Notes: a model not told the origin generated them from the sequence alone. 64,000 nt of DNA from an uncultured Gammaproteobacteria bacterium (GCA_964596355.1 CAZQTD010000001.1:68446-132445); one strand, 5' to 3'. Counted from the first letter of the stretch, positions 29,361 through 34,102 are shown. Translations and numbers: made by a program.

Positions 29361-29765
29361 CTTAAAATACTTGTTATATTGCTACATTGCTGCATTGTTG
29401 GAAAACAATGCAGCCATTTGACAATGTAACAATTGAGTAGCACGTTAACAACTCAATGACTCTATGAAATCAGGTGAAATTCCTGATGCATAGAATGTTA
29501 TAAGTAGTTGCATCGTAAGGGGTAATCCAATCCGCCAGACGGCGGAGATTACCTTTACATTTTAATTTTGTTGATGATTGAACAGTGGACCGTCAGCAGA
29601 CGGATCCTTTGTTCTCTGCAACGCTACAAGCTGACAATGGATGCCTAGGGCGCTCATGCCGAGGAAGGACGCATATGACGGCGATACTCGTCGGGTAGGA
29701 GTCATAATCCGATCATCCGGCGATTTCCGAATGGGGCAACCCATCTATCGCAAGATAGAGACTGT

Positions 29766-29905
29766 ATTGCAAAAACGGTTCGCATGGTGTTTATAAATAG
29801 TATTTTTTGAGATTAGACATTGGACAGTAGAAGTTGGATGAAGAAATTGGAAGTTAGAGATTAGAAAATCAAACCTCAAGCTTCTAATTTCTATCTGTCT
29901 ACCAT
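29766..29905. repeat. AT-rich expansion/insertion in 23S 5' domain, bounded by inverted GTTTATAAATAG/ATTTATAAACAG
   Basis: Contains GAGATTAGA x2, GAAGTTGGA and AAATTGGAAGTT, modules that also occur in CDS insertions and in intron 2. Confidence 0.55.
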
Positions 29906-30344
29906 CAAATTTATAAACAGCATGCGGATCGGGATAGCAGTACAGGGGATACCATCCGAACTGAAACATCTCAGTAGGGTGAGGAAAAGAAATCAAGCAC
30001 GAGATTCCGTTAGTAGCGGCGAGCGAAAGCGGAACAGCCTAAACCCGCAAGGGTGTTGTGGGTCAGGAGTTATGGGATGTGTTGAGGATAGGAGAATACT
30101 GTGGAATAGGTAACCAAAGGGAGTGAAAGTCTCGTATCCGAAATCCAAAACACCTCTATTCTGTTCCCAAGTACCATGGGCCACGAAGGGCCTGTGGGAA
30201 GCTGGGTCAACCACGATCCAAGGCTAAATACATGAGTGCACCGATAGTGAACAAGTACCGTGAGGGAAAGGTGAAAAGCACCCCGGAAGGGGAATGAAAG
30301 AGTACCTGAAATTGTCAGCTAACAAACAGCGAGAGGCGTGCTTT

Positions 30345-30445
30345 GCACGCTGGTAGTTCATTGTTCATCGTTCATGGTTCATAGCCACAATGAATTTTTC
30401 ATTATACCTATGAACTAATAACTATGAACCAATAACTATCAGCAT
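30345..30445. repeat. Second AT-rich expansion in 23S (GTTCAT/ATGAAC repeats)
   Basis: Low-GC palindromic segment between conserved 23S blocks. Confidence 0.5.
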
Positions 30446-31902
30446 GCAGAGCATGCTGATCGCGTGCCTATTGAAGAATGATCCGGTGAGTTTTCCGTCA
30501 ATGCGAGCTTAACCGCGTTCAACGCGGGAAGGCGCAGTGAAAGCGAGCCCTAAATAGGGCGACAAGTATTGGCGGACAGACCCGAAACCAGGTGAGCTAA
30601 CCATGAGCAGGGTGAACCCCGCAGAAGTGCGGGGGGAGGCCCGAACTCGTCAGAGTTGCAAATCTGTGAGATGACTTGTGGTTAGGGGTAATATGCCTAT
30701 CGAACCTGGAGATAGCTGGTTCTCCCCGAAATATATTTAGGTATAGCGGTATTGTTATCTCATGAAGGGGGTAGAGCACTGAATGATGTCGGTTTCGCAA
30801 GGAATCGGCATCAATCAAACTCCGAATACTTTCATGAGTATCTTGCCAGTCAGACATGCACGGCTAAGCGCGTGTGTCAAAAGGGAAACAGCCCAGACTC
30901 ACATCTAAGGTCTCTAACTGCATGCTAAGTTGGTAAGGAAGTCATGGTTTTAAGACACCCAGGAAGTTGGCTTAGAAGCAGCCACCTTTTAAAGAACGCG
31001 TAACAGCGCACTGGATGAAAGCCGTGGCGCCGAAAATGATCGAGGATTAAGCATGCGACCGACGATTGAGCTTTCGGAGAATAGAAAACAGAGGAAGGAA
31101 CAGTTGCAATTCCGTCAATTGCGTCATCTAAATGCGTTGTCTGTCCTTTGTTTTCTGTTCTCCGGAGGGGTAGGGGAGCGTCTTCTGTGCGGTGAAGGTC
31201 AGGCTGTAAGGCCGGCTGGAGCGCAGAGGAGTGCGAATGCCGGAATGAGTAGCGTTTGAGGGTGAGAATCCTTCATGCCGAATGCGCAAGGTTTCCGAAG
31301 CAACGTTCGTCGACTTCGGGTAAGTCGGACCTAAGGCGAGTCCCGCTCCAAGCGGGGGTAGCTCGATGTAGAAACGGTTGATATTCCGTTGCAACTGTGT
31401 GTCGATTCAGACTCAAAGGAATGACAAAGGGGGACAGGTCTCGCCGTGTTAAGCGCGGCCAAGCTTCAAAGTAGCGATAACTGGCAAATCCGTTATTGTG
31501 TTAAACATGAGGAGCGATGGGGAGGTCAAACCGCAAGGGGCGGCCAAGAGAGATAGTTTCGCTTTCGAGAAAAGTTTCGTTGAGGAGCACATAGTTTCCG
31601 TACCGCAAACCGACACAGGTGCGCTGGTAGAGTATACCAAGGCAAGCGGGTGATCGTGGTTCAAGGAACTCGGCAACAAAAACTAGGCGTAACCTATGGG
31701 AGATGCCTTGCCCAGCCACTGGCTGGGCCGCAGTTAACGACGCTAAGCGACTGTTTAACTAAAACACAGGTCTCTGCGAAGCCGCAAGGCAATGTATAGG
31801 GGCTGACACCTGCCCAGTGCCGGTAAGTTAAAAATAGTTGATGACTTGAAGCAATTTGAGAAGTTAGCTATTTAAGCTCCGGTGAACGGCAGCAGTAACT
31901 AT

Positions 31903-32636
31903 TAACACAGTTAGTAGTTGTAAAAGTTGACTAAATGCTGGAAGAGCCGTACCTAGTTCTGAGAAAAATCGAAGAACGAACGGTTGAAGTATCTGACGCT
32001 ACCAGGTATACTGGTAACAATGCGGTCAGTGCGGCAAATCAGCAGGAAAGACTTGAAAAAGGAAAAACTTGGCTATTTCTTAGCAGGGTTTGTAGAAGGT
32101 GAGGGAAGTTTTAATGTATCTCTACGGCGGAAAGCTGACTACAAAGTCAACTGGCAAGTCGTGATGAGCTTTAATGTTTCGCAAAAGGATCCTACAATAC
32201 TTAAAATATTGAGAGAAGAAATTGGATGCGGGATTATTAAAGTTCGAAAACAGGATGGTCTTCACTCCTACGACGCTACAAATCCAGAAGATTTAATTAA
32301 GTACGTCATTCCATATTTTCGTAAATACCAGATGGTATCCGAATCCAAAAAGCGAAACTTTGCGATTTTTTGCAGAATTGCGAAACTTATGGAAAAAGGA
32401 GGACACAGAACGAAATCCGGATTAAAGCAAATCCTTCTTCTTCGTGAAGGAATCAATGAAGGGAGGGGAAGGACAAGAAAATATGGTATTCACGACGTAT
32501 TTCCTCTTCAAGAATCCTCAGAGACTACACGTCAACCCCCGCCTTCATCATAATGTATGAGGGATTGGCGGGGATGATATAGTCCGACCTCATGGGCGAC
32601 CATGAGAGCCGTACCCAATCGGCGTATAACAAAGTG
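31903..32636 (+). mobile_element. Group I intron in 23S rRNA (helix 69 region, near E. coli L1915-1917) carrying a homing endonuclease gene
   Basis: Joining the exons restores GTAACTAT|AACTGTTCTATGGTAGCGAAATTCC. The 5' exon ends in U and the intron ends in G. It encodes a LAGLIDADG ORF and shares a ~80-nt conserved 3' core with intron 2. Confidence 0.7.
32020..32553 (+). CDS. LAGLIDADG homing endonuclease (intron-encoded)
   Basis: LAGFVEGEGSF motif, single-motif type. Lies within the 23S intron. Confidence 0.85.
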   Translation: MRSVRQISRKDLKKEKLGYFLAGFVEGEGSFNVSLRRKADYKVNWQVVMSFNVSQKDPTILKILREEIGCGIIKVRKQDGLHSYDATNPEDLIKYVIPYFRKYQMVSESKKRNFAIFCRIAKLMEKGGHRTKSGLKQILLLREGINEGRGRTRKYGIHDVFPLQESSETTRQPPPSS

Positions 32637-33296
32637 AACTGTTCTATGGTAGCGAAATTCCTTGTCGGGCAAGTTCCGACCCGCACGAAAGGTAGAACGA
32701 CTTAGCGACTGTCTTGAACCATTACCCGGCGAAATTGAAATGGCTGTGAAGATGCGGCCTACTTGCACATGGACAAAAAGACCCCGTGAAGCTTTACTGC
32801 AGTTTGGCACTGAGGACTTTATTTTGACTGTCGAGCATAGGTGGGAGACTTCGGTCGCAACATGGAATACCACTCTTCGAAATGAGGAAATCTTACTTAC
32901 TCCTGCATAAAAATCCAGGAGGAGGACACTGTCTGACGGGCAGTTTAACTGGGGAGGTTGCCTCCAAAACTGTAACGGAGGCGTACAAAGGTTGGCTAAC
33001 CCTGAATGGAAACCAGGGCGTGTCGTGCAAACGCGATAAGCCAGCTTGACTGCGAGAGTTACCGCTCGAGCAGATGCGAAAGCAGGTGTTAGTGATCCTC
33101 GCATCCCTCGTGGGAGGGAGCGGGCTTAACGAATAAAAGCTACTCCGGGGATAACAGGCTGATCGCTTCCGAGAGTCCATATCGACGAGGCGGTTTGGCA
33201 CCTCGATGTCGGCTCATCCTATCCTGGGGCTGGAGAAGGTCCCAAGGGTCCGGCTGTTCGCCGGTTAAAAGGGTACGCGAGCTGGGTTCAGAACGT

Positions 33297-33689
33297 AGGT
33301 GATACTGCGTTTGGCAACAGTGATGTTGCTTTAGTATCGGCTGTATCGGTGAAGCCTAATGTCATACCGAACATGACTATGGTAATACCGAGGGAAGTCG
33401 GTCTCATTGAGACTAGACATTAGACTTTAGAAGATTGAATTTGAAGTTTGAAAGATAGAAGATAGATTTACATGATTAAGACATTTCGAGATCTTGAAGT
33501 CTATCAAGAAGCATATCAGCTTATGCTGATAATCCATTTCACTATCTATTTTCTAATTTTCTATTGTCTAGCGACAATTGACTTGACCCCGTAGAGACTA
33601 CACGCCGACCCCCGCCTTCATCATAATATATGAAGGATTGGCGGGGTGAAGATATAGTCCATACCACTGGAAACAGTTGGAACAATATG
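33297..33689 (+). mobile_element. Second group I intron in 23S (E. coli L2593-equivalent site), HEG-less, with nested AT-rich MITE-like insert
   Basis: Exons AGAACGT|CGTAAGACAGTTCGG. The 3' core GACTACACGCCGACCCCCGCCTTCATCATAATATATGAAGGATTGGCGGGG is nearly identical to intron 1. Confidence 0.65.
33407..33567. repeat. AT-rich ~160-bp element with terminal inverted repeats (GACTAGACAT...TGTCTAGC) nested in intron 2
   Basis: The terminal inverted repeats are read directly. The interior shares AGACATTAGAC / GAAGATTGA-type modules with the 23S 5' insertion. Confidence 0.5.
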
Positions 33690-34102
33690 CGTAAGACAGT
33701 TCGGTCTCTATCCTGTGCAAGCGCTCGATTCTTGAGGGGAGTTCTCCGTAGTACGAGAGGACCCGGAGGAACAGATCCCTGGTGTGTCTGTTGTCGGTAA
33801 ACCGGCATCGCAGAGTAGCTAGATCTGGAAGGGATAAGTGCTGAAAGCATCTCAAGCACCAAGCCCACCCCAAGATAAGGAATCGTTTGAGACTCGTTGT
33901 AGATGACAACGTTGATAGGCGAGGAGTGTACGCCCCGTAAGGGGCTCCAGCTTACTCGTACTAATCAGTCGAAGTTGCGGAGAACAAAGGAACGCACCAG
34001 TCGGTGCATTCTGCTTGTTCAACCAACGAAATGAATAAGAGGTAATCTACCGGGTTGCCCCTTATGATGTAACTACGTATGGAAAGATTTTGCGTTGAGA
34101 CC

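Follow-up and report, generated by a model that had tools for sequence, protein, structure and literature searches.

What are the two long insertions that interrupt the 23S rRNA gene in a 64,000-nucleotide stretch of DNA deposited under the name of an uncultured Gammaproteobacteria bacterium (GCA_964596355.1 CAZQTD010000001.1:68446-132445), and how could a ribosome tolerate them? In this stretch, hereafter the window, the gene measures 4371 nt, compared with ~2900 nt in Escherichia coli, and the bacterial large-subunit model of Rfam covers it end to end (2194 bits, model positions 1-2925). An earlier sequence-only reading had described the insertions as two related group I introns, one encoding a homing endonuclease and the other harboring a nested element resembling a miniature inverted-repeat transposable element (MITE). 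The analysis described here makes it very probable that the gene, from a Gottesmanbacteria-like member of the Patescibacteria, carries group I introns at large-subunit positions L1917 and L2593, each folding as a ribozyme. The gene is divided as follows (positions are those of the window):

29614..33984, plus strand: 23S rRNA gene (full Rfam model RF02541, LSU_rRNA_bacteria, and MAFFT alignment with E. coli rrl)
29614-31902, 32637-33296 and 33690-33984, plus strand: 23S exons
31903..32636, plus strand: intron 1, group I, site L1917 in the helix 69 loop, 734 nt, no P2
33297..33689, plus strand: intron 2, group I, site L2593 (the I-CreI site), 393 nt, no endonuclease gene, no P7.1/P7.2

The sites were placed by MAFFT alignment with an E. 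coli rrl copy (L001:1084-3986, 2903 nt) in which A2451, A2602 and A2660 are each offset by -1 and position 2592 corresponds to standard 2593. Insertion 1 follows E. coli U1917, and insertion 2 follows standard U2593. Exon ligation in silico restored GTAACTAT|AACTGTTC at the first site and AGAACGT|CGTAAGACAG at the second. The last nucleotide is U in both 5' exons and G in both insertions (32636 and 33689), the terminal G being kept in nearly all listed relatives of either intron. The sequence-only reading had thus set the boundaries and junctions exactly, and the U|...G| splice rule that it invoked is obeyed at both sites.

The covariance scan that the same reading had proposed gave a different picture. 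At the gathering score of Rfam Intron_gpI (RF00028; 50 bits), neither intron was reported in the window. A local scan gave 25.9 bits for intron 1 (E=2e-4, a partial match on the 3' part) and 29.3 bits for intron 2 (E=1e-5, the full model with a 185-nt insertion placed in P6), and a score below threshold had been named in advance as grounds for abandoning the assignment. Because the proposed test formally failed for both introns, the folds were tested with relatives. Every helix of the P3-P4-P6 and P7-P3'-P8 core, with its P3/P7 pseudoknot, was located in both introns; in both families, P3 shows compensatory changes and is 98-100% paired, and P8 covaries. Both insertions are group I introns, because covariation among relatives and a family-specific covariance model (86.5 bits, described below) support the folds. 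This evidence overrides the generic scan, and the low Rfam scores reflect a generic model together with long P6 inserts that cost score. The locus serves as a worked example of how the Rfam group I model under-scores such introns, which site-specific family models recover cleanly. The compensatory substitutions, found in 40 and 58 relatives, imply selection on the catalytic fold.

For intron 1, a scan of species-representative genomes yielded 46 loci related through the endonuclease gene, of which 39 were aligned with the window (n=40). The helices of intron 1 (all on the plus strand) are:

31897-31906 with 31910-31919: P1
31926-31931 with 32531-32536: P3
31936-31941 with 32039-32044: P4
31946-31949 with 32032-32035: P5
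32045-32047 with 32515-32517: P6
32052-32057 with 32507-32512: P6a
32523-32527 with 32580-32584: P7
32537-32543 with 32567-32573: P8
32589-32595 with 32600-32606: P9, with a GCGA loop
32608-32611 with 32620-32623: P9.1, ahead of the terminal G at 32636

The aligned introns share the site GTAACTAT|AAC and measure 602-774 nt, and the 5' and 3' parts of intron 1 are ~80-83% identical to those of its closest L1917 relative. In P1, AACUAU|UAAC pairs with GUUAGUAGUU; across the family the exon sequence AACUAU pairs with GUAGUU, the U·G pair being present in 39/40 sequences; on the intron side, P1 shows covariation. P3 spans the open reading frame (ORF) and is canonical at all six positions in 100% of the sequences, with 3-5 pair types. 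More generally, P3, P5, P6a, P8, P9 and P9.1 show 2-6 pair types and remain 75-100% paired, and no variation is seen in P4 or P7. Covariation extends to P5, P8, P9, P9.1 and P6a, the last of which likewise spans the ORF; for most pairs, none of 500 column shuffles reached the observed pairing.

The gene within intron 1 is accounted for in the same detail:

32020..32553, plus strand: single-motif LAGLIDADG homing endonuclease gene, 177 aa from ATG (189 aa from TTG at 31984)

Its product matches PF00961 (LAGLIDADG_1; E=2.6e-20, 73.6 bits against a cut-off of 23.1) and contains the motif LAGFVEGEGSF on which the sequence-only reading had based its identification. Residues E26, G27, E28 and G29 are invariant among 22 aligned homologues, as is the longer stretch GFxEGEGSFN. 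A total of 896 homologues were found, the best 120 of which are 68-86% identical, the window's own entry aside; the nearest solved structures are those of I-SmaMI and the I-OnuI family. The frame opens within the 3' strand of P5, takes up the P6 loop and continues through P7 and P3' into P8, such that the conserved C-terminus ESSETTRQPP is translated ribozyme core and the P8 hairpin supplies the stop codon. By these alignments, intron 1 is placed in a widespread L1917 lineage with an intact single-motif LAGLIDADG gene in P6. A CPR (candidate phyla radiation) relative acting at another site, I-ShaI, has been proven active, according to the text of a recent survey (PMC11270868).

None of the 46 genome loci carries an L2593 intron. 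Relatives of intron 2 were instead collected from metagenome contigs by scanning for exon AGAACGT followed, after a gap of 35-65 nt, by the P4 motif; the scan returned at least 120 stretches. Of the 80 that were listed, about 60 proved to be genuine L2593 introns, and the alignment built from them comprises 58 sequences, the window included. The helices of intron 2 (plus strand) are:

33291-33298 with 33305-33312: P1
33313-33318 with 33325-33330: P2
33337-33341 with 33604-33608: P3
33346-33351 with 33386-33391: P4
33354-33356 with 33381-33383: P5
33392-33394 with 33588-33590: P6
33596-33600 with 33655-33659: P7
33610-33616 with 33640-33646: P8
33664-33669 with 33674-33680: P9, with a GAAA loop, ahead of the terminal G at 33689

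In P1, AACGU|AG pairs with CUGCGUU, and the U·G pair occurs in 58/58 sequences. The intron side of P1, as well as P2, P3, P8 and P9, is 84-100% paired with 3-6 pair types, and P4 and P6 are invariant; the pair counts for P7 and P5a are unreliable, owing to MAFFT misalignment around P7.1/P7.2 and to the variability of P5a. RNAalifold, applied to 36 L2593 sequences other than the window's, independently recovered P1, P2, P4 and P5. A covariance model built from the same 36 introns has a single hit in the 64 kb, at 33289-33396 (86.5 bits, E=5e-20, full length), and intron 2 is 78.6% identical to one relative, L063, over 103 nt.

Intron 2 contains no ORF longer than 40 aa, in agreement with the sequence-only reading, which had found no endonuclease gene there. 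The P6 loop measures 444-769 nt (mostly ~470) in 44/58 L2593 introns, and 40/44 of these have a clear xAGFLDGDG ORF. The ORF-less introns, 14/58 including the window's, have loops of 40-188 nt, and L074 retains a LAGLIDADG remnant. P7.1/P7.2 are present in 55/58 sequences and absent only from intron 2, L063 and L108. From these comparisons, intron 2 is assigned to the L2593 lineage and appears to have lost both an I-CreI-like gene and P7.1/P7.2; a history of endonuclease gene loss would make it a post-homing relic. The 23S gene would then hold both stages of the homing cycle, with an endonuclease-bearing intron beside an endonuclease-less one.

The sequence-only reading had treated the two introns as one family on the strength of a near-identical 3' segment. 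The segment is real: 54 nt are shared at 93% identity and a further 16 nt at 88%. Alignment with the relatives assigns most of it to the universal core, AGAGACUAYAYG and GAUAUAGUCC. P3' reads GUCAAC in intron 1 and GCCGA in intron 2, each matching its own P3 5' strand; J8/7 and P9 are of the L1917 type in intron 1 and of the L2593 type in intron 2; and the 5' halves (P1-P6) show no similarity to each other. A single intron family was therefore rejected, as intron 1 aligns with the 40 L1917 introns and intron 2 with the 58 L2593 introns. Because the P1-P6 halves are unrelated and the flanks follow each intron's own lineage, the two represent separate site-specific lineages. Beyond the universal P7 and J8/7 motifs, the two have only a 38-nt P8 hairpin in common, identical at 36/38 positions:

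32537..32573, plus strand: P8 hairpin of intron 1, CCCCGCC-TTCATCATAATGTATGAGGGATT-GGCGGGG
33610..33646, plus strand: P8 hairpin of intron 2, near-identical to the hairpin above

The common sequence is CCCCCGCC-UUCAUCAUAAURUAUGARGGAUU-GGCGGGG, and its 26-nt core occurs exactly twice in the window, against an expectation of 0 by chance. In the 3' cores that were inspected directly, from 21 L1917 and 3 L2593 relatives, the inner hairpin is missing throughout and short unrelated P8 stems stand in its place; a motif scan of 42 complete L2593 introns found no other copy. Across all fetched loci, blastn-short returned no further copy except L004:8494-8527, a 91% match in the P9 extension of an L2604 intron. 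A similar GC-clamped hairpin was observed in the P5 extension of the L1917 intron of L004. Hairpins of the form CCCCGCC-[AT-rich palindrome]-GGCGGGG thus recur in P8, in a P9 extension and in a P5 extension of different introns in two related genomes.

The shared P8 is most readily taken for a short tract of gene conversion between the introns, or for a small hairpin module, rather than for a sign of common descent. In a conversion between the two introns, the identical core motifs of 10-12 nt that flank P8 would serve as arms or primers. The L004 copy, at a different structural position, is unexplained by conversion of P8, and the pattern hints at a recurrent GC-clamped hairpin module.

The P6 loop of intron 2 holds a further hairpin, which was examined together with an expansion of 23S helix 9 that resembles it:

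33405..33580 (approximate), plus strand: AT-rich hairpin element in the P6 loop of intron 2, 176 nt
33409-33471: purine-rich 5' arm of the P6 element
33472-33540: first 23 codons of a putative PF05635 gene, within an ORF that runs to 33594
33541-33580: pyrimidine-rich 3' arm of the P6 element
29762..29945, plus strand: helix 9 expansion, a long hairpin at a classical intervening-sequence (IVS) site, with inverted arms of 37 nt and a fold z of -9.1

The arms of the P6 element are long imperfect inverted repeats, and the element folds as one long hairpin (z=-7.2 for the whole intron). Its ORF, 40 codons beginning MIKTFRDLEVYQEAYQLMLIIH, is present in two assemblies of the same sample, a 145-kb NCBI contig and a 9.2-kb Logan contig of SRR10095374. 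The 23-40-aa insert ORF matched nothing in Pfam, in NCBIfam, in tblastn searches of plasmids and fetched loci or in a word-indexed protein search. A phmmer search of 1.8 billion representatives returned five short proteins that are 71-80% identical to it over the first 25-28 residues (E 7e-5 to 4e-4). One of them, P0243 (80% over 25 aa, E=7e-5), matches PF05635 (23S_rRNA_IVP) at E=2.4e-14 from profile position 1 on the stretch FRDLEVYQ, and two others match the profile weakly. Membership of the insert ORF in PF05635 is accordingly a transitive link through P0243, to which DNA homology to the P0243 locus (L170:24-515) is added: 48/61 positions agree in the purine-rich leader and arm and 55/68 in the first 23 codons, values that 0 of 500 shuffles reached. 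Beyond the shared part, L170, which is located at a contig end, continues with a near-full-length PF05635 frame and then a pyrimidine-rich 3' arm. In three loci that, like L170, come from other samples (L171, L174 and L175), the same arm and ~25 codons are kept between protein-coding genes.

The inner part of the helix 9 expansion (29809-29912) contains no ORF and matches both arms of the P6 element (47/59 and 30/38; 0/500 shuffles). By these matches, the helix 9 inner hairpin is an ORF-less sibling of the P6 element, and the P6 insert appears to be a decayed miniature deletion derivative of a hairpin-flanked PF05635 gene cassette. The sequence-only description of a nested MITE-like insert holds insofar as the insert is bounded by a hairpin and derives, in miniature form, from something larger; it was rejected as a strict MITE, as the full-length relative encodes a PF05635 protein and not a transposase. 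Within a 23S IVS, an ORF of the PF05635 type is a classical arrangement; no report of such an ORF within an intron was found.

Two observations made elsewhere touch on this element. In another metagenome, the closest longer relative of intron 2 (L108:3619-3931) carries a 130-nt P6 hairpin with a purine arm and a pyrimidine arm but of unrelated sequence, and P6 of ORF-less L2593 introns seems repeatedly to attract long hairpins. In the window itself, an EndoQ-like gene (ORF 11115-12662; TIGR00375 E=3e-44, PfuEndoQ E=7e-43) encodes ~49 extra residues (66-128) relative to the solved enzyme, and within 11321-11440 of this gene a 60-nt match to the helix 9 element, on its 5' arm, reaches 76.7% identity (blastn E=1e-6). 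The segment may be an in-frame copy of the helix 9 element, reminiscent of Rickettsia palindromic elements; its fold is not significantly better than that of shuffled sequences (z=-1.5).

Copies of the element stand at a 23S IVS site in helix 9 and in an intron P6, and its relatives are intergenic. It is possible, though rather doubtful, that the AT-rich hairpin belongs to an undescribed dispersed family of miniatures derived from a PF05635 cassette, which colonize RNA terminal loops, intergenic DNA and possibly genes in frame; the GC-clamped P8-type hairpin could be a second such module. If true, this would link the classical 23S IVS with a mobile element whose parent form can be defined, and the element, if mobile, would offer a handle on the origin and spread of 23S intervening sequences.

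Based on the folds and their conservation, a simple model can be proposed. In the precursor of the tRNA-Ala/23S/5S transcription unit, each intron would fold into a ribozyme. An external guanosine would attack after U1917 or U2593, each held in the U·G pair of P1, and the terminal G would then direct exon ligation, restoring the loop of helix 69 and the strand of the peptidyl-transferase centre. The enzyme of intron 1, predicted to be a single-motif LAGLIDADG endonuclease that works as a homodimer, would drive homing by cutting 1917 alleles that have no intron. Intron 2 would represent the post-homing stage, having lost the I-CreI-like P6 gene that about three quarters of its relatives keep, together with P7.1/P7.2; its P6 now holds what appears to be a decayed miniature PF05635 cassette, with a second copy in helix 9. 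Guanosine-dependent splicing of both introns, endonuclease activity and homing are all predictions from sequence.

Several points weigh against this model. Besides the sub-threshold Rfam scores, intron 2 is without the P7.1/P7.2 found in 55/58 family members and bears a 176-nt foreign hairpin; because of these two features, it may splice poorly or need a cofactor. There is also precedent, cited below, for a 23S group I intron that goes unspliced in another bacterium.

One alternative, which is very improbable, takes intron 2 to be a crippled ribozyme that needs a trans-acting factor, for example the LAGLIDADG protein of intron 1 acting as a maturase with the shared P8 as its binding platform. 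Some LAGLIDADG proteins act as maturases. Intron 2 has neither P7.1/P7.2 nor an ORF of its own, and the 38-nt P8 module is confined to the two introns of this gene and the single copy in the L2604 intron of a related genome; the survey cited above (PMC11270868) also mentions maturase function for such proteins in its text. However, L063 and L108, from unrelated samples, also lack P7.1/P7.2 and have ordinary short P8 stems without the module, so the reduced L2593 form persists without it, and all core helices of intron 2 are intact.

The other alternative bears on further features of the gene, the remaining two long hairpins at classical IVS sites:

30334..30460, plus strand: helix 25 expansion hairpin, a 107-nt insertion after E. 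coli position 537, fold z=-9.1
31072..31167, plus strand: helix 45 expansion hairpin, with insertions after E. coli 1164 and 1184, fold z=-3.5

The helix 45 hairpin has one purine-rich and one pyrimidine-rich arm. Like the helix 9 hairpin, both are very stable, and the three could be RNase III-excised intervening sequences, leaving a fragmented 23S, or retained expansion segments. That introns 1 and 2 go unspliced, being either retained or cut, like classical intervening sequences, by RNase III-type processing without ligation into a fragmented 23S, is very improbable. The three expansions in the same gene, the Rfam scores under threshold and a report that a group I intron in the 23S of Simkania is not spliced (reference 28 in PMC11270868, as given in the text of that survey) speak for it. 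Against it, function is hard to square with a helix 69 loop that is broken or holds 400-700 extra nt, or with the same disruption between U2593 and C2594 in the peptidyl-transferase centre; the ribozyme helices, including the long-range P3 across the ORF, are held by compensatory changes in the 40 and 58 relatives, the splice-site U·G is kept in 39/40 L1917 and 58/58 L2593 sequences with a terminal G in nearly all relatives, and passages of the same survey describe such insertions as removed from transcripts.

RadA (38299-39630) is 74-80% identical to its relatives, the named ones of which are Candidatus Gottesmanbacteria or Patescibacteria proteins; because of this relatedness, the host is assigned to the CPR/Patescibacteria as a probable Gottesmanbacteria-like bacterium. 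The loci carrying the endonuclease gene are mostly from Microgenomates, the gene order 23S-S1-RadA is common to the window and L002/L003, and the window's ribosomal protein S1 is short (398 aa). Nine other metagenome-assembled genomes labeled 'uncultured Gammaproteobacteria' (binchicken/TPA; L003, L006, L018, L020, L028, L032, L033, L037 and L047) carry a Patescibacteria-type endonuclease intron, and such labels look unreliable as a guide to the host.

Related 23S genes of Patescibacteria (L003-L048) have up to four or five introns each, and the intron sites in the related loci are 1917, 1931, 1951, 2449/50, 2474, 2500, 2504, 2511, 2547, 2585 and 2604. In those nearest to the window (L002/3, L004, L005 and L007), site 2593 is empty and an intron without an ORF lies 11 nt further downstream, at 2604. 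Several related loci also have introns near the 3' end of 16S that resemble intron 2 in their 5' halves.

The surroundings of the gene are as follows:

29288..29361, plus strand: tRNA-Ala(UGC), upstream of the 23S gene
34103..34219, plus strand: 5S rRNA, downstream in the same operon (Rfam RF00001, 73 bits)

Ahead of the 23S-5S unit (27394-29361) there are only this tRNA gene and a glutamate dehydrogenase gene. An Rfam scan found no 16S gene in the window, and there is no tRNA-Ile gene there either; because both are absent from the 64 kb, the rRNA operon appears split. Two more tRNA-Ala genes, with GGC and CGC anticodons, lie 70 nt apart at 54535-54753.

How far the locus departs from known systems depends on the feature considered. 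Insertion sequences in CPR 23S genes were reportedly first described by Brown et al. in 2015. A survey by Tsurumaki et al. (2024, J Bacteriol; PMC11270868) states in its text that 82% of CPR 23S genes carry insertions, that LAGLIDADG_1 genes occur at 1917, 1931, 1952, 2593, 2604 and 2657, and that short insertions lie at RNase III IVS sites. The rarity that the sequence-only reading had seen in multiple self-splicing introns of one bacterial 23S gene does not hold up against these figures, the host's lineage being one that the reading had itself named as an exception. As described in that text, the insertions 23IS6 (1917) and 23IS12 (2593) resemble those of the window in host group, sites, group-I-like flanks and single-domain LAGLIDADG_1 genes, and the short hairpin insertions at IVS sites of the same gene are a further likeness. 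Unlike the survey's 2593 insertion, intron 2 has no endonuclease gene, no P7.1/P7.2 and a PF05635 remnant in P6, a combination of which the searched text of the survey, supplements aside, makes no mention (PMC11270868). LAGLIDADG group I introns at 1917 and 2593 are already documented for CPR, and the window is a further instance.

The combination of L1917, L1931 and L2593 introns in a single 23S gene was described in Synechococcus sp. C9 (Haugen et al. 2007, PMC1995217). Its L1917 intron, like intron 1, measures ~740 nt, lacks P2 and has a LAGLIDADG ORF extending from P6 through P7, P3 and P8, and its L2593 intron shares a short P5 and a short P2 with intron 2 (PMC1995217). Cyanobacterial L2593 introns differ from intron 2 in keeping a full endonuclease gene and P7.1/P7.2 (PMC1995217). 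The window differs from Synechococcus C9 in having no L1931 intron, and the L1917 intron of Thermotoga subterranea is grouped with that of Synechococcus C9 as a close known intron. Since the CPR sites and the pairing of L1917 with L2593 have already been described, the rRNA intron pair itself adds little.

Intron 2 occupies the same site, L2593, as the I-CreI intron of the chloroplast 23S gene of Chlamydomonas reinhardtii, the target of which we take to be CAAAACGTCGTGAGACAGTTTGG. The L2593 relatives of the window share this site and encode xAGFLDGDG proteins in P6 that are putatively I-CreI-like, whereas the window's copy appears to have lost the gene. Introns in the 23S rRNA of Coxiella burnetii are said to have been described by Raghavan in 2007, and S23p of that species presumably belongs to PF05635. 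The Coxiella 23S gene comes close to the window in combining group I introns, at L1917 and L1951, with an IVS that contains an ORF, the helix 45 IVS encoding S23p (Warrier 2016, PMC4990558). The Coxiella IVS is intact and sits in helix 45, whereas the putative PF05635 element of the window is decayed, with copies in helix 9 and in the P6 loop of an intron.

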